Assembly: GCA_052147435.1 (NCBI GenBank)
Contig: JBKQKP010000055.1
Span: 1-32,000, forward strand
DNA: 32,000 nucleotides
Reading direction: 5' to 3'
DNA from: Polyangiaceae bacterium
GTDB taxonomy: Bacteria > Myxococcota_A > Polyangia > Polyangiales > Polyangiaceae
The position numbers and the translations under genes are program-made. Below are positions 6,382-12,992 of the stretch, in pieces (position 1 is the stretch's first letter; each line of letters begins with the position of its first letter). The notes under the pieces are model-generated. The model saw only the letters and a list, made by a program, of their open reading frames with translations, made no database searches and was not told the DNA's origin.

Positions 6382-7887
6382 TCAGCCCTTATCGCTCCCG
6401 TCACGTTTGTCGCGTCTCTCCGGCAAGACGGCGAGCGGCTTCGGATCGTAGGCCCGCGGCCCCTCGATGGAGTCCCACGCGAGCAGATCCGCGACGGGGC
6501 CATGCTCGGTCGTCCGGATCACGAGGTGCGTGCGCGCCGCCCTGTACTGCGACGTCTCGTCCGCCTCTTCCTCCGCCCAGGAGCCGACGTTGATGTACGT
6601 CGTCGCGCCGTCGTTCACGTCGACCCGCTGCGGCACATGCGTGTGCCCCATGACGACGAAGGCGGCAGGAAAGAGCTTCGCGAGGTGCTGCGCGCGATCC
6701 GCGAGGAACGCGTCGGGCTCGATCTTCCGCTGGCTCGAGAGGTACCGGTTCGCCAGAGACCAGGCGACGAGCACGCACGCCGCGCCCCACCAGCGGTGCC
6801 CGTGGTTCCAACTCGCGATGGCGACCCCGACGAGCGCGAGCGACGCGCCGAGGGCCAGTGCGAGTCGATCGAGAAGGACGCTCGCGAGGATCCCGCGGAC
6901 CGAGTGCGTAAGGGGGGGGACCTGCAACGCAATGAGCGCGCGGAGCCGGTCCATGCCGATACGGGACGCTTCGGCGAGGAGCGCGACTCGCTTCTCGTGC
7001 TCCTCGCGGAGCTTTCGCGCCGCGTCGGTGAAGTGCTCGCGCCGCAGTCGGAAGAGCTCGATCACGGCGCTCGTGAAGCGCCACGCCAGCCGCAGGAGCC
7101 CGCGCGCTCCGAGCCCCACCGCGAACGAGATGTAGTCGAGGAGCCCCTGCGTCTCGTGACCGTGCTCCTTCATCCCCTTGGTGGGACGCACCACGTACCG
7201 GAGGAACACCTCGGTAAAACCGCGCGCGATCCGCCGCGGATCGAGCGGCGAGAGCGGCGCCATCACGTAGTCGGTCGCGCAGAACGCGTCGTACTGGTGG
7301 CCGTGCTCGATGTACGCGACGCCGTCTGCCCAGAAGAACCACGGGTTGAACTCGATGCGGGCGAGAAACTCGTTCGCGTCGATCTCGGGGTTGGCCAGAA
7401 TGGCGAGGCGGGCGAGGATCTCCTTGAACTCGGTCCGCACCGACTCCCAGTGGAACTCGATGTCGTGGTTGCCGTGCACCATCGTGAGCGCGTGCCCCTT
7501 GGCGACGAACTCGGCGATCGCCGCGAGTACCTCGGAATGGCGCTCCGCGACGCGCTTCAACTTCGCGCGCGAGTGGTCCGAGGAGTTCCCGAGCCCGTGC
7601 GCGAGCTCCTCTTCGCTCGGATCGGTGTCCAGCTGCGCGCGCGACCCTTCGGCCGCCATCGCGATGCCGATGAAGTCGATGAAGTCGCCGGCGATGACCG
7701 CCCTCCACCGCTCGCCCGCCGGAGCGACCCGGGCGTAGTGACGAAAGAGCGCCGTCAGATCCTGGTCGACCCGCTTCGATCGGCGCGGCGCGGCCCCAGG
7801 GGCTGCACGATCGTTAATGTCGCTGCCCAGATGTACGTCGGAAAGGATGAGGAGCGTCTCTCGCGGTGCTCCCGAGGGGGCCGCCAT
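6382..7887 (-). CDS. metallophosphoesterase with C-terminal membrane-associated region
   Basis: 501 aa. Calcineurin-like motifs LSDVHLG, AGDFIDF, GNHD, and a C-terminal GHTH. Hydrophobic segments around ILASVLLDRLALALGASLALVGVAIA. Confidence 0.85.
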   Translation of the reverse strand: MAAPSGAPRETLLILSDVHLGSDINDRAAPGAAPRRSKRVDQDLTALFRHYARVAPAGERWRAVIAGDFIDFIGIAMAAEGSRAQLDTDPSEEELAHGLGNSSDHSRAKLKRVAERHSEVLAAIAEFVAKGHALTMVHGNHDIEFHWESVRTEFKEILARLAILANPEIDANEFLARIEFNPWFFWADGVAYIEHGHQYDAFCATDYVMAPLSPLDPRRIARGFTEVFLRYVVRPTKGMKEHGHETQGLLDYISFAVGLGARGLLRLAWRFTSAVIELFRLRREHFTDAARKLREEHEKRVALLAEASRIGMDRLRALIALQVPPLTHSVRGILASVLLDRLALALGASLALVGVAIASWNHGHRWWGAACVLVAWSLANRYLSSQRKIEPDAFLADRAQHLAKLFPAAFVVMGHTHVPQRVDVNDGATTYINVGSWAEEEADETSQYRAARTHLVIRTTEHGPVADLLAWDSIEGPRAYDPKPLAVLPERRDKRDGSDKG

Positions 7888-7893
7888 ACTGAG

Positions 7894-7922
7894 ACTATGG
7901 TGGCTCGAGCACCGCGTAGCAA
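7894..7922 (-). promoter_or_regulatory. possible sigma-70-type promoter giving a leaderless metallophosphoesterase mRNA
   Basis: The minus strand reads TTGCTA-17 nt-CATAGT-ctcagt-ATG. The -10 hexamer ends 6 nt before the start codon and there is no Shine-Dalgarno site. Confidence 0.25.
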
Positions 7923-8153
7923 GGTGCGCAGCAAGAAATCTCGTCGAATGACGCAGACTTCGCGCGGCGTCATTCCGGGTACGGGGTGTAAGTTACGGGA
8001 ATCGTGTCGGCGCCTGTAGTCAAGATCCCGCCCGGATGAGCCCGGGACCAACCGCGACAGGAAGGGCACAGAGCCGACCCCCGGCGCCCCCGAATCGCCC
8101 CGAGGACCCCTCTCGAGCCCCCTCCGAGCCACGCCCGGAGCGTCCGCGCCCGG

Positions 8154-8179
8154 AAGTTATCCCCAGAAGTTTTCCCCAG
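8154..8179 (+). repeat. tandem 13-mer AAGTTATCCCCAG / AAGTTTTCCCCAG
   Basis: Two directly abutting copies (8154-8166 and 8167-8179) with 12/13 identity. Confidence 0.9.
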
Positions 8180-8280
8180 CCCCTGTGAACGAGACGGGAC
8201 GCGCAACGCGCTCTCGATCGCAATCGCTGAATCGCATCGACGCTGAAGCTCGTGTGCGAGCGAGGCGATCACGGATCAAG

Positions 8281-8580
8281 AACTCGAATTGTCTCTCGAG
8301 TGACTGGCGTTGAGGACAGCAATTTCATCGATCGATGCGACTCGATGATTCAAACAGAAAGCCTCACATCATTCACAACACTCAAACAGTATAGTGACGA
8401 ATGCAATTCTCGCATATGCACTTTCAAATGCCATATTGGCGCGCCGGCGCGGCCCCCACAAACCACTCAGTCCTGAAGAATCCGTAGGAAACATGTGGAA
8501 AGCCCGCAATAAAAGAGGTGGAGAACCTGTGGAGAAGAAAATCGACTTTGCAACGTTTTTTTTCTTTCATTTGAGCGCTG
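8281..8580. promoter_or_regulatory. AT-rich island (about 46% GC by hand count) with repeated motifs; probable promoter/regulatory region
   Basis: My count is 139 G+C in 300 nt, against about 70% in flanking genes. It contains (T)GTGGA(A/G)AA three times (8493-8501, 8517-8525, 8529-8537), TATAGT at 8390-8395, a T8 run at 8556-8563, and TTGACG at 8582-8587. Confidence 0.5.
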
Positions 8581-8863
8581 GTTGACGCAAATACGTCCTT
8601 ACGAAGTTCGCGGCACATCACGCCGCGGGCAGCAGTCGGTCACGGAAGCCGTCTTGGGCGCTGCGATCGAGGGGTTCGGGAGGGGGGAAGCAACCAACCT
8701 TTCGTTCCGTTCGATTGAGCCGCACCGGATGCTTGGCTCGTCATGCCGGGCATCACGGGGTGGTTGAAAAGGCGCAGGCTCTCCCAATCTGCAAAGCGTC
8801 GGTGTTCTTCGGGGCACAGGTGCTGCGTGGACGGAGGCCCGATTGGGTGGGAGCGAGGAGCAA

Positions 8864-8884
8864 TCCTCGGGCTCAGACAAGCGC
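8864..8884 (+). repeat. copy 1 of internal 21-nt repeat TCCTCGGGCTCAGA(C/G)AAGCGC
   Basis: 20/21 identity with 9324-9344. Its TCCTCG is the 3-prime arm of the hairpin CGAGGA-GCAA-TCCTCG (8854-8869). Confidence 0.85.
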
Positions 8885-9323
8885 AGGTACGGTGGAACGC
8901 ACCTCGGTCTTCGTCGGAACGCATCGCCCTTCGCGGGGAGGTGCGGGAACCGGAGGCCTCAACGGTGGCTCACCCCCCACGTTCGCGTGGGAGTGAATCA
9001 CCCGGTGCAGGCAAAACGCGCGAGAGGTTCCGCCTCTCGTAGCACTGCCCGCACGACGAAAGGGGTGCGCGGTACCGGTTCGAGGAGGGGCCTCGCCCGT
9101 CGAAACGTCGGCGCGAACCTTCACTCGAGTCGGTCCGGTCCGCACAGCGCATGCTTCTTCGGAGGCAAGCGCTGCGCGGCTCGTCAGCCCGTGCCGTCCC
9201 CGCGAGGGGGCGGACGAAGGTGAAGGCGGTAGGAGGGTCGTCACCTCCTAACGCAGCACGAGGAAACGAAGCAGCTCGCGGTGGGTGCCCGTGCATCGTC
9301 GTATTGCAGAAGTTGGCAGAACG

Positions 9324-9344
9324 TCCTCGGGCTCAGAGAAGCGC
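9324..9344 (+). repeat. copy 2 of internal 21-nt repeat
   Basis: 20/21 identity with 8864-8884. A matching CGAGGA lies 59 nt upstream at 9259-9264. Confidence 0.85.
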
Positions 9345-10955
9345 GCAATCGGTATCGGTCGGGTCGAAAGCCCGCGCGGCATACGAGGCGCGTGAACGGG
9401 AGCCTGACCATCGGAGTCGCTCAGGCGCGCAAGCGCAGGAGCACACCGGTGGCAAAAGGGGGGCGGCTCATCGAAGCTCGGCGATCCTCATCACGTGAGC
9501 GCCGCGTCTATCGATGAAAGCAGCGCAGTTTCGTCCGTGCTTCGGCGCGGGCGGGGTGTGCGTCGCGTCTGCTGGCGGAAGGCACCCTGGATCGGCAAAG
9601 CGCACGCCTTTCACGAGGCCCCCGCGGAACCGGTCTTGGCGGCCTCCGAGCCAATGCGTGGGATGTGAAAAAAAAGCGGCCCACGCAAACAGCACGGAGG
9701 AGGCGACAGGGGTGTCAGAGGCGGTCGGTCATCGGTTTCGCACGGCGGAAGAAAACGCCACCGAGTGAAAACCGTCCGGTCGCCGAAGTGGGAACCACGC
9801 CGTGAAGCATGATTCCCCCCGGCCTCGTTCGCATCGGGCGGCCCCGAGCCTCCCGGTGCCTGGTTCGCGCGTCTTCGGACGGGCGAAGCGGCGCGCGAAG
9901 AACAGACGTTCGCGTGAACGAGCACGGAGCCGCAAGGTTCCGGGACGAGAGCGACCCTCGGACGAAGCGTAACGAAAGAAGCGAATCGCACGGGTCGGTC
10001 GTAGCGCTGGGAAACGACGAAGTACGAGTGCTCGAGTTGGAACGGTTTCGGAGTGCAGAAGTCGATCGGACGCATCGCCGGTCGCGACGCCCGTGGGCGC
10101 TACCAAGCGCACCTCGGATACGCGCGACCTAGCCCGGAAGAGTCGCTTGCAGGGCGTTTGACGCGCAGTGCAGCGGCGATATCGAGCGACAACGGTGCGC
10201 GGGCCATCGAAGCGTTTTCTAACCACGGAGACGCGGACTGGTCCTTACCGCACGCGCAAGCCTCGTCGGGATCGCATCCGGAGGGGTGCGGGCTCGGGGA
10301 CTCGGGAAGTCCCAGGGCCGCGAGCGCGCGGCAACCGATACGATGGAAGGGTGTCCGGGTCGTGGATGCGCCCCCCTAAACCAGGGGCGTGATTGCGGCT
10401 CTGGCCTTGAGGGTGAATGCAACGCGAGCCTCACGGCGCGCGGTGCCGCTGGTGGCGCAGCAACGGAAATGCGCTCATCGGTGCCTTTGGGGCGACGGCG
10501 ACACTCAGAGGTTGGGACGGTTTCGGAGGCTCCTCCAGCCGCGTTCTCCTTCGGGAGGCACGGTGCGGGGGGTCGGCACCCACGGCGCGGAGCTCCACTA
10601 ACTGCGGGGCAGGCGTCGGCGATGTGAGGTCACGGCGCTTGCGTCGGGGCCACACGGGGCGGTCGCGAGCCGGGAGGCGTGCGACACGCGGAGTGCACTG
10701 AGATCGTAACGACTGAAGCGGGCGACGGTTAACCGCCCTGCCCCTTTTGCTTCTTCGCTCAGCCGCGCGAACGGCGGGCGTCGAACGAAAGACTCCGAGA
10801 CACGCTTCGGTGATGCACGAGCGCGCGCTCCCGCGATTTGGTTCGCGAGGGTCCGTGCCGTGGAGGTCTGCGGTGGAGGCGCTCTGGCGCGTCCGTCCTC
10901 GAAACAAGGTGAGCTCTACCCCCGTGGTAGGTTCGCCGCAGGCAAGTGACTTCGG

Positions 10956-10998
10956 CGAAGGCGACCCCGGGTGACCGGTGGTCGCCTTCGTTCTTTTG
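10956..10998 (+). terminator. rho-independent terminator (plus strand)
   Basis: Perfect 11-bp stem CGAAGGCGACC (10956-10966) / GGTCGCCTTCG (10980-10990). The inner CCGG/CCGG pairs cap a GTGA loop. The hairpin is followed by TTCTTTTGT. There is no U-tract on the opposite strand. Confidence 0.8.
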
Positions 10999-11066
10999 TC
11001 CCGTGCTTTCGACTTGTTCAGTGGTCAGGCCCGTGGCAATTGCACTACCTCCGGCATCCAATTGGA

Positions 11067-12992
11067 ATGAGCGTGTCTTTCTTCGCAAATCGGCCCCGCA
11101 TATTGCCCGGCGATCCCCTCCCCTTCGGCCGCGCCGCGCTGGCGCTCGCAGAGGCCATCATCCCGGGGTCGGCCAGCATTCCGGCCGCGGACGAAGTCAC
11201 CGTCGCGCTCGCTGACGAAGCGCTCGGCCTTTTCCACCCCGGCCTGAAGAAGGCCTTTCGTGTCGCCCAGGGCACGCTCGACGCCGCCGCGATCGCGCAG
11301 AAGGGGCGTCCGTTTCACTCGCTATCCGCCGCAGCGCAGGACGCGCTGGTCCGGCGGTGGGAGCAAGACCCCGTCCTTCGAATGCCGCTCGGGTTCGTAT
11401 CGCTCATCTACCGCTTCGTGCACTTCGACCGGCCGCGCGTCTTCGAAGCACTCGGGGGGGAGCGTCCCGAGGAGCCGAAGCTTGAGCAGCCGCGATGGCT
11501 CCAGCAAGTCCACCGGGCCGACGACTGGGCGGAGGGGGATGACGTCGAGTGCGACGTCGTCGTGATCGGGACCGGCGCGGGCGGCGGGGTTGTCGGGCGG
11601 GAGCTCGCGGAGCGCGGGCTCGCGGTCGTGTTCGTCGAAGAGGGGGAGCACTACCGCCGCGACGCGTTCAACGGGCGCTCGCTCGAAACGCACCACAAGT
11701 TCTATCGCGGCGCCGTCACGATGGGGAACGCGCCGATGCCCATCTTCATGGGGCGGCTCGTCGGCGGGTCGACGGCGATCAACGGCGGGACCTGCTTCCG
11801 GACGCCCCCCTGGGTGCTCGATCAGTGGTGCGAGGATCTAGGGACGAGCGATTTCGCCCCCGAGGCGATGAAGCGCTTCTTCTCCCGCGTCGAGGACACC
11901 CTTCAAGTCGCGCCGACCGAACGCCGATACATCGGCCCGATCGCCGACGTCATGTCGCGCGGCTGCGACGCCCTCGGGTGGCACCACTTCCCGATCCAGA
12001 GGAACGCCCCGGGCTGCAACGGATCCGGCTTCTGCGACTTCGGCTGTCGCACCGGGGCGAAGCGGGGGACCGACATCGCGTACGTTCCTCCGGCGCTCGA
12101 GCGAGGCTCGCTCCTCCTCACGGGTCTTCGGGCAGAGCGCGTGATCCTCGAAGGGGGGCGCGCGGTGGGAATCGAAGGGCTCACGAAGAGCGGACGAGCG
12201 CTTCGCGTGCGAGCAAAGACAGTCGTCCTCGCCGGTGGGTCGGTCCCGACGCCGCTCTTTCTACTGAAACAAGGACTCGGCAACCGGAGCGAGCAGGTCG
12301 GGCGGAACCTCGTGCTCCAGCCGAGCAGTGGTTTTTCCGCGCGGTTCGACGAGAAGATCAGCGGGAAGGACCACGTCCCGCAAGGGTACGCGTGCGACGA
12401 GTTCGGCCGCGACGGGATGCTGATCATGTCGGCGCAGCCCGACGTCAACGTAGCGGGCGTTCTCTTCCCGTTCTCGGGGCAGCGGCTCATGGAGACGCTC
12501 GGCCGCGTCGATCACATCGCATCGTTCGCGCTCCTCCTGCGCGACTCGACGGCGAACGGGCGCGTCTGGCGCGACGTCGCAGGGCTGCCGGCCGTCACGT
12601 ACAACGTGACCCGCGACGACATCTCGCGGATACACCTCCTGATGACGCGCGCGGGAGAGATGTGCCGCGCCGCGGGGGCGAAGACGCTCTATCCCATGGC
12701 CCTCCGGCGGCAGATCATCGAGGGGGACCGCGCGTTCGACGAGTTCCGCAAGACGCCGTTCGCACCGGCGGAGATCGTGTGGTCGAGCTACCACCCGATG
12801 GGGACCTGCAAGATGGGGCGAGATCCGAAGACGAGCGTCGTCGGGCTCGATCACCAGGTGCACGACGTCCCGGGGCTCTACATCGCGGACGGGAGCACGG
12901 TGCCGAGCGCGCTCGGGGTAAACCCGCAGATGACGATCATGGCGATGGCCACGCGCGCGGCAGAGAAGATCGCGGAAGCCGTTGGCGCGTGA
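11067..12992 (+). CDS. GMC family FAD-dependent oxidoreductase with N-terminal extension
   Basis: ORF 10971..12992. The first ATG (10971) sits inside the terminator loop, so ATG 11067 (MSVSFF) is preferred. Rossmann motif VVVIGTGAGGGVVGRELAERG and C-terminal HPMGTCKMG...ADGSTVPSALGVNP. Confidence 0.85.
   Translation: MSVSFFANRPRILPGDPLPFGRAALALAEAIIPGSASIPAADEVTVALADEALGLFHPGLKKAFRVAQGTLDAAAIAQKGRPFHSLSAAAQDALVRRWEQDPVLRMPLGFVSLIYRFVHFDRPRVFEALGGERPEEPKLEQPRWLQQVHRADDWAEGDDVECDVVVIGTGAGGGVVGRELAERGLAVVFVEEGEHYRRDAFNGRSLETHHKFYRGAVTMGNAPMPIFMGRLVGGSTAINGGTCFRTPPWVLDQWCEDLGTSDFAPEAMKRFFSRVEDTLQVAPTERRYIGPIADVMSRGCDALGWHHFPIQRNAPGCNGSGFCDFGCRTGAKRGTDIAYVPPALERGSLLLTGLRAERVILEGGRAVGIEGLTKSGRALRVRAKTVVLAGGSVPTPLFLLKQGLGNRSEQVGRNLVLQPSSGFSARFDEKISGKDHVPQGYACDEFGRDGMLIMSAQPDVNVAGVLFPFSGQRLMETLGRVDHIASFALLLRDSTANGRVWRDVAGLPAVTYNVTRDDISRIHLLMTRAGEMCRAAGAKTLYPMALRRQIIEGDRAFDEFRKTPFAPAEIVWSSYHPMGTCKMGRDPKTSVVGLDHQVHDVPGLYIADGSTVPSALGVNPQMTIMAMATRAAEKIAEAVGA

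Follow-up and report, generated by a model that had tools for sequence, protein, structure and literature searches.

The large bacterial RNAs of unknown function described so far (OLE, GOLLD, ROOL, raiA) measure 200-800 nucleotides (nt), and they gave membrane ribonucleoproteins (RNPs) and RNA-only nanocages. OLE (ornate, large, extremophilic) is an RNA of about 600 nt from Bacillota, whereas GOLLD (about 800 nt) and ROOL (about 580 nt) are often found in prophages, near tRNAs, and form RNA-only nanocages. The 16S and 23S rRNAs measure 1.5 and 2.9 kb, and group II introns with an open reading frame (ORF) 2-2.5 kb. At the functional level, OLE serves as the core of an RNP and assembles into homo-oligomers (PMC12286853, PMC12265935). 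Here, we analyzed a stretch of 32,000 nt (the window) from contig JBKQKP010000055.1 of a Polyangiaceae bacterium (GCA_052147435.1), where positions 8576/8606-10998 of the plus strand are very probably a stand-alone gene for a ~2.4-kb noncoding RNA (ncRNA) of a previously undescribed family. An initial annotation, made from the sequence alone, had proposed a giant structured ncRNA of unknown family at 8600-10998, and the giant size holds, at ~2.4 kb.

Rfam 15 (4227 covariance models) gave no match over the whole window at gathering thresholds. At E ≤ 10, the region 7800-11200 gave five chance-level matches only (13.7-23.5 bits vs. thresholds of 50-70), the best of them on the minus strand over the terminator; no family was thus assigned at either level, in agreement with the initial annotation. 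No tRNA or tmRNA was found in the 32-kb window. A blastn search of 7888-11066 against plasmids and phages (50,697 phage records) detected no similarity, and a scan of viral contigs with a 20-mer of the core gave no match. Full-text literature searches turned up no account of an RNA of this kind or of the contigs.

The window RNA resembles OLE in being a stand-alone gene for a large, intricately folded and conserved ncRNA, without coding potential and with many conserved unpaired nucleotides. However, there was no Rfam match to OLE and no detectable similarity to it in sequence or structure, the window RNA is ~4 times longer, it belongs to Myxococcota, and its neighbors are not of the oapA/oapB type but housekeeping-type enzymes (metallophosphoesterase, GMC oxidoreductase, ALDH). 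With GOLLD and ROOL, it shares a large size, several domains supported by covariation, many tetraloops, and a discovery through long non-coding gaps and metagenomes. It differs from them in lacking an Rfam match, a tRNA, and phage, plasmid or viral similarity, in being chromosomal and syntenic, and in being 3-4 times longer.

The likeness to rRNA lies in the size class, the domains closed by long-range helices, the interchanging UNCG and GNRA tetraloops, the G·U-rich helices, the variable peripheral 'expansion' loops, and an apparent high abundance in RNA assemblies. Against it, no SSU or LSU match appeared even at E ≤ 10, and the gene, confined to a narrow clade, ends in a terminator of its own and is not part of an rRNA operon. 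Group II introns are similar in total length and multi-domain fold, but the window RNA presented no domain V/VI or D1-D4 Rfam match at E ≤ 10, and no reverse transcriptase or conserved ORF. Moreover, it lies outside host genes, as a single syntenic copy that has an upstream element and a terminator of its own. Descriptively, it is a large ornate structured bacterial ncRNA: longer than 500 nt, non-coding, bounded by an upstream element and an intrinsic terminator, and with covariation evidence for a multi-domain secondary structure.

The window matches contig JBKQSZ010000963.1 of the metagenome-assembled genome (MAG) GCA_052143415.1. Two other assemblies carry copies 99.9-100% identical, and therefore no sequence variation was gained from them. 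After removing near-duplicates, we retained 16 distinct homologues with 57-92% pairwise nucleotide identity (alignment A1), and three further members were more divergent (L113, L114, and L109:2229-3935, hereafter L109b). All the homologues come from soil and peat assemblies of uncultured Myxococcota. Conservation extends along all 2.4 kb of the element (from about 8494-8520 to 11000 of the window), whereas the neighboring spacer lacks it: positions 7888-8490 are unconserved, and 7940-8490, with 0 invariant columns and essentially unalignable, serve as an internal control for neutral drift between the carrier genomes.

We derived the consensus structure with RNAalifold on A1, using as controls the same pairs with the partners slid by 1-3 columns. 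The fold contains 797 pairs in 107 helices, where 91.9% of the cells are canonical (vs. 37-45% when slid) and 287 pairs present compensatory changes, with both sides changed and pairing kept (vs. 96-118 when slid). Forty helices, spread over 8648-10937, combine ≥ 4 pairs and ≥ 90% canonical cells with two or more covarying pairs. In a hold-out test, we predicted the structure from 12 sequences and scored it on five unseen ones: pairs were 83-86% canonical in four of them and 70% in the most divergent, L109b, compared to 33-46% in the slid controls. Even where both nucleotides differed from the training consensus (94-111 pairs per sequence), 63-76% of the pairs were kept, compared to 19-53% of the 52-96 such pairs in the slid controls. 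The stems are kept by compensatory substitutions.

The same was seen when parts of the RNA were aligned separately. Domain II (9288-10028, alignment A2) gave 187 pairs with 94.9% of the cells paired; 94 of these pairs had compensatory changes, compared to 43.4 ± 4.2 in shuffles (0/500 as high) and 24-40 when slid. Domains III-V (10026-10718, alignment A3) gave 198 pairs, 59 of them with compensatory changes. Besides, a scan of all column pairs blind to the structure, requiring ≥ 5 stacked bp and ≥ 3 covarying pairs, returned seven stacks, and all belong to helices of the predicted fold (7/7). At a lenient threshold, the structure-blind search for pseudoknots and kissing loops gave 19 in-structure stacks and 18 others, none of them convincing.

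Regarding the strand, the minimum free energy (MFE) of 8600-9599 was -526.5 kcal/mol on the plus strand (z -8.9) and -425.7 on the minus strand (z -4.2); for 9600-10599, the values were -496.0 (z -2.8) and -432.8 (z +0.2). The advantage of the plus strand is thus 63-100 kcal/mol over these two segments. Moreover, G·U amounts to 13.9% of the predicted paired cells and A·C to 2.8%. The excess of G·U over A·C together with the better folding of the plus strand places the RNA on that strand and supports the functional plus-strand structured RNA that had been proposed.

The initial annotation had also pointed out that 7888-11066 has no ORF above 165 codons, and indeed the longest ORF overlapping this gap is 165 aa (9729-10226, minus strand), whereas wrong-frame ORFs elsewhere in the window, of ~67-70% GC, reach 1269-1470 aa. 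The codon-phase GC difference is 0.24-0.62 in the flanking genes and ≤ 0.14 throughout 7760-11120. Codon periodicity is absent from 7681-11220, the sole low-periodicity stretch of at least 700 nt in the window, and none of 80 related loci (about 1.4 Mb) contained such a stretch longer than ~1.5 kb. Among the homologues, no stop-free segment of at least 35 codons on either strand was intact in more than 5/13, so that no protein gene is preserved at the homologous loci, and substitutions showed no period-3 signal (power-to-median ratio of 1.26). A protein-database search with the concatenated stop-free translations of the RNA gave 8000 candidates and 0 significant ones. Lacking codon periodicity, period-3 substitutions and a conserved stop-free segment, a pseudogene or small-ORF reading was rejected. 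Positions 8576/8606-10998 of the plus strand are without coding potential: this is a single-copy non-coding gene, whose plus-strand product is under selection for an elaborate multi-domain secondary structure.

At the composition level, G exceeds C and A exceeds T all along the RNA region. The hexamer CTTCGG occurs seven times in 8600-10998 (8807, 9157, 9540, 9873, 10549, 10805, and 10950) and its complement CCGAAG once (9783), exactly as listed at the outset. In 2000 dinucleotide-preserving shuffles, which did not reproduce the bias, the mean count was 1.34, with P(≥ 7) = 0.0005 and P(excess ≥ 6) = 0.001. The strand bias was not seen in the rest of the window (20 vs. 32). As a separate observation, public gene callers had put 'hypothetical proteins' of 200-390 aa, without Pfam domains, over the RNA in several contigs among the homologous loci L085-L093 and L113. 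These spurious calls mean that the RNA family is mis-annotated as protein-coding in databases.

Table 1. Features of the RNA gene and its flanks (positions in the 32-kb window)
Feature	Position	Strand	Description
RNA gene, maximal likely transcript, ~2.4 kb	8576-10998	plus	Supported by homologues, consensus fold, hold-out test, MFE, and transcript-like contigs
Conserved upstream element	8494-8540		Two direct TGTGGA-N-AA motifs at 8494-8502 and 8528-8536; the second inside CTGTGGANAANAAA (8527-8540)
Promoter-proximal block, possible 5' leader	8541-8600	plus	Conserved in 11 genomic homologues; TTTGCAA (8547-8553), T-tract (8556-8567), TTGACGCAAATACG (8582-8595)
Invariant 5' block with hairpin CGCGGC-ACAUCAC-GCCGCG	8601-8630	plus	29 nt (8601-8629) invariant in 7 genomic homologues
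Domain I, multi-branch	8612-9289	plus	Closed by 8612-8641/9263-9289; UUCG-, GNRA-, and GAAA-capped hairpins
Domain II, most conserved core of the family	9290-10026	plus	Closed by long-range 9290-9302/10014-10026, with 4 covarying pairs
Most conserved core segment, GGCGAUCCUCAUCACGUGAGCGCC	9480-9503	plus	Invariant or nearly so in A1; contains 8-nt palindrome UCACGUGA (9491-9498)
Conserved inter-domain hairpin, then GCAGAAGUCG	10028-10056	plus	9 pairs, 99% canonical, almost invariant
Domain III	10061-10344	plus	Closed by 10061-10069/10335-10344; nearly invariant ~80 nt at 10247-10330
Domain IV	10349-10506	plus	Closed by 10349-10356/10498-10506; conserved CUAAACC loop hairpin at 10369-10389
Domain V	10510-10714	plus	Closed by 10510-10526/10698-10714
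3' hairpin series	10720-10937	plus	Variable-length terminal loop at ~10835-10844
Intrinsic terminator	10956-10998	plus	15-bp bulged stem, GUGA loop, U-tract; T-run kept in all full-length genomic homologues
Calcineurin-like metallophosphoesterase gene	6382-7887	minus	Assigned with Pfam; divergently transcribed; flanks the RNA syntenically at most homologous loci
GMC oxidoreductase gene	11067-12992	plus	Assigned with Pfam; starts ~70 nt past the RNA end, on the same strand as the RNA

The fold comprises at least five independently closed domains and a 3' hairpin series, with ~800 bp and ~45 hairpins (Table 1). In domain I, covarying pairs concentrate in 8719-8737/8745-8764 (n = 7), 9226-9236/9244-9254 (n = 7), and the GNRA-capped 8854-8859/8864-8869 (n = 4). 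Domain II has a second long-range covarying closing helix, 9818-9823/10006-10011. The 3' series includes an 18-bp helix at 10744-10765/10772-10791, a helix with 5 covarying pairs at 10816-10834/10845-10862, and a supported one at 10908-10915/10930-10937. Every tetraloop hairpin noticed at the outset, five C(UUCG)G and one GNRA (8854-8869), is in the consensus structure, and the stems covary: 8796-8807/8812-8823, 9140-9157/9162-9179, 9520-9540/9545-9566 (20 bp, 11 covarying pairs), 9866-9873/9878-9885 (6 covarying pairs), and 10544-10549/10554-10558. UNCG-type tetraloops account for about 8 and GNRA tetraloops for about 10 of the 45 hairpin loops (roughly 40% together), and loops interchange within their class across homologues (UUCG/CUCG/UCCG; GCAA/GCGA/GAGA/GUAA).

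The core segment GGCGAUCCUCAUCACGUGAGCGCC is identical in the distant L114 and absent from L109b. The motif GCAGAAGUCG occurs twice in the RNA (9305-9314 and 10054-10063) and is kept in L109b. We also observed that GUUGGRACGGUUUCGGAG occurs twice (10036-10053 and 10511-10528) and that it is conserved across homologues, as is the doubled GCAGAAGUCG. These repeated motifs may go back to an old duplication within the RNA, or they may be paralogous binding sites. A search for longer internal similarity or for tandem or module duplication (self-blastn and TRF) gave only three short repeated motifs, and a reading of the element as internal tandem or modular repeats was rejected on that basis. As for the variable loop of the 3' hairpin series (window ~10835-10844), L105, a population variant otherwise 99% identical to L111, presents there an insertion of ~890 nt (L105:481-1410, minus strand). 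This insertion has imperfect terminal inverted repeats (TGTCAAAGATCGCG... / ...GATCGGCGACAA) and no similarity to any other fetched locus, and it resembles a small non-autonomous transposable element.

The 3' end of the proposed region is at the terminator, whose perfect 11-bp stem and U-tract are as first described and conserved in the genomic homologues: the outer stem (10956-10966/10980-10990) encloses a CCGG/CCGG stem capped by a GUGA loop and is followed by UUCUUUUGU. The 5' boundary stood less well: conservation begins upstream of it, near 8520, and an RNA 5' end at 8576-8606 is more likely than one exactly at 8600. Contigs begin at 8531, at about 8576-8577, and at about 8595-8606, and the transcript-like ones begin inside the 8541-8600 block.

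Six contigs lie wholly inside the element (L097, L099, L100, L102, L108, and L112; 2167-2414 nt), starting at 8531-8606 and ending at 10777-10968, shortly ahead of the conserved terminator and in line with the predicted ends of the transcript. By our own estimate, a random 2.3-kb DNA contig containing the 21-mer used to find them, TCGCGGCACATCACGCCGCGG, would start within ~30 nt of a given point in roughly 1-2% of cases. Thus, 6/13 contigs starting near the same point indicate a physical boundary. The Ga-series identifiers of the transcript-like contigs (Ga0058885, Ga0058902, Ga0213852, Ga0222720, Ga0222744, Ga0222749, and Ga0265766) differ from those of contigs with flanking genes. The simplest reading is that the element-only contigs are assembled transcripts, which may come from metatranscriptomes.

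Several points weigh against a single 2.4-kb RNA gene of this kind, or against parts of the proposal. It is known from a single clade of uncultured Polyangia-like MAGs, a narrow distribution. A scan for the sigma-70 consensus found no promoter, sigma-54 spacing judged by eye does not fit either, and the contig 5' ends scatter over 8531-8606. Contig ends at the element boundaries could also come from repeat-induced assembly breaks, although this fits poorly because the element is single-copy inside contigs of 28-199 kb. The structure was derived from the same alignment as most of the counts, which the hold-out test mitigates, and weak predicted helices exist, such as 9734-9767 (64-78% canonical). 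The hairpin at 8606-8630 that had been proposed at the 5' end does form locally in the single-sequence fold, but the consensus instead pairs 8612-8641 with 9263-9289 to close domain I, and the two are mutually exclusive; the block is invariant, so there is no covariation for or against the hairpin, which is mostly retained in L114 despite an altered block (GCUCACGGCGUAUCUGGUCGCGGGC). Finally, a scaffold or ribozyme mechanism, taken up below, would follow by analogy.

The alternative that survives best is that domains I-V are several smaller RNAs, either independent or separated after transcription, which we hold to be unlikely. The fold is a string of self-contained domains, and its 5' and 3' ends are not connected by any helix with covariation support (8587-8588/10938-10939 is only 2 bp). 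Moreover, whole sub-domains are reduced or missing in the divergent L113 and L114; in L114, they are deleted, with profile positions 4-1236 squeezed into about 800 nt, and the core GGCGATCCTCATCACGTGAGCGC is identical to that of the window RNA. However, 10956-10998 is the sole plus-strand terminator-like site inside the element and stands at its very end, no conserved AT-rich blocks resembling internal promoters were seen, each of the six contigs covers nearly the whole element, and domain order and spacing are kept in all the full-length homologues. Separately functioning RNAs, or processing into pieces, are therefore possible but less likely. The long-range closing helices, the single plus-strand terminator, and the six near-full-length contigs argue for one transcription unit.

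Less probable still is a non-functional remnant, whether of a pseudogene in decay, of an inactive mobile element or of a group II intron without its ORF, in which the hairpins would reflect the high GC. The size is near that of a group II intron with its ORF, and one homologue tolerates the ~890-nt insertion. Against a remnant, the element is conserved in full length next to an unalignable spacer, compensatory covariation is massive and G·U prevails over A·C, residual codon periodicity is absent, and no intron domain V/VI was matched in Rfam even at E ≤ 10. Besides, the element lacks repeats, resembles no phage or plasmid, and occurs as a single copy in a syntenic position. The covariation and the lack of periodicity and of matches effectively refute this explanation.

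We consider it equally improbable that the element is a giant cis-acting leader, or riboswitch-like 5' untranslated region, of the downstream GMC oxidoreductase gene. The two share a strand, with 70 nt between the end of the element and the gene, and the intervening terminator could serve as an attenuator. However, the terminator is strong and invariant, and no competing conserved anti-terminator was noticed. The neighborhood of the homologues is more telling. Metallophosphoesterase homologues at 72-85% protein identity led to loci L085-L093 and L113, and at all of these a homologue of window ~8364/8472-11000 runs opposite to the metallophosphoesterase gene, with 74-78% nucleotide identity over 2.5-2.7 kb where that protein is 80-85% identical. 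The RNA adjoins the metallophosphoesterase in these loci whichever gene stands on the far side. The gene downstream of the RNA is PepQ in L088, L089, L091, and L111, rather than the GMC oxidoreductase of the window, and the neighbors differ again in L113 and L114. A cis-regulatory leader is unlikely because the downstream gene differs in this way. Conversely, at 80 GMC oxidoreductase loci from GTDB species representatives (GMC ≤ 67% protein identity; labelled Polyangiaceae, Myxococcales or Sandaracinaceae MAGs), the GMC-ALDH pair was kept and a homologue of the RNA was found in 0/80; the homologues were reached via the upstream metallophosphoesterase instead.

Upstream of the RNA, CTGTGGANAANAAA is found once in each of the 20 loci with the RNA 5' flank and in 0/94 other loci. 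Its TGTGGA-N-AA core resembles the reverse complement of the DnaA box (TTATCCACA) and is perfect in L085, L092, L113, and L114. The upstream element aligns even in the divergent L113 and L114, there as a perfect TGTGGATAA, and the window copy has 1 mismatch. The two copies of the motif are spaced by about 33 nt, and a further DnaA-box-like motif lies at 8157-8165, upstream of the RNA. Only two DnaA-box-like matches with ≤ 1 mismatch occur in the 32-kb window, both in this intergenic region, a count that alone is not significant (12/100 shuffles). Judging from the motif, the upstream element may be a DnaA site. The weakest alternative, a DNA-level signal (such as an array of protein-binding sites or a region tied to replication or DnaA) with incidental transcription, has in its favor these conserved motifs just upstream and the invariant palindrome TCACGTGA inside the element, but hardly deserves credence, as it cannot yield strand-specific, G·U-tolerant compensatory changes across about 290 pairs, the box-like motifs are outside the structured part, and neither dnaA nor dnaN is nearby.

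At the family level, the RNA is present as one copy per locus in a syntenic intergenic position, assembled as single-copy inside the contigs of 28-199 kb. Loci L094-L096 and L114 have a metallophosphoesterase 67-69% identical, with a spacer of only about 260-390 nt beside the gene. In L094-L096, the RNA is absent beside the metallophosphoesterase, and the spacer is too short to hold it. The L114 homologue (L114:160-954, minus strand), distant and compact, is located ~8 kb from the metallophosphoesterase, beside ABC-transporter genes, and is truncated by the contig end. A scan of metagenome contigs with the invariant 21-mer retrieved 16 contigs, 13 homologues and three chance matches; the latter (L098, L103, and L106) are coding-region contigs and were discarded. 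One of the homologous contigs, L109, has an RNA copy fused to the second, much more divergent member (L109:2229-3935; 90 and 29 bits with profile nhmmer), and thus the RNA family is broader than the 21-mer scan reveals. The fusion itself has two readings, a tandem arrangement or an assembly chimera formed from two homologues that are both expressed. In the spacer upstream of the RNA, we also observed two short tandem repeats at 8107-8179 (CCCCTCTCGAGC x2.1 and CCCAGAAGTTATC x2.4), not kept in the homologous loci.

As for its role, a promoter at about 8530-8600 would drive the RNA as a single transcription unit, abundant enough to assemble full-length from environmental RNA. The RNA may act in trans via its three-dimensional architecture, as an RNP scaffold or catalytic core, or as a self-assembling RNA; we do not propose it as a base-pairing regulator or a cis-acting leader. 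This suggestion is based on the analogy with OLE, GOLLD, and ROOL (PMC12286853) and on the rRNA-like design features. The conserved unpaired purine-rich segments (GCAGAAGUCG twice, GGAAGGCA, and CCGAAGUGG) are candidate protein-binding sites or RNA-RNA contacts, and the invariant UCACGUGA palindrome in GGCGAUCCUCAUCACGUGAGCGCC is a candidate protein site or kissing contact. More tentatively, and with considerable doubt, the window RNA could be the largest structured bacterial RNA outside rRNA and introns, serving as the core of an RNP machine, as a ribozyme or as a self-assembling architecture, perhaps coupled to the cell cycle via the DnaA-box-like element.

We rate the window RNA as a new family and effectively a new size class, 3-4 times longer than the longest known examples. 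If this is true, an RNA of ~2.4 kb with rRNA-like domains, about 290 covarying pairs, and an apparent high expression in soil would define that class. The case also shows that long gaps without ORFs or periodicity in high-GC genomes are a productive route to such RNAs. With well-defined boundaries and an alignment ready, this one offers a target for cryo-EM, probing, and genetics. Its host phylum, Myxococcota, is characterized by giant genomes and complex behavior, and complexity at this scale suggests a sophisticated function, which may be catalysis, a large RNP or a higher-order assembly.

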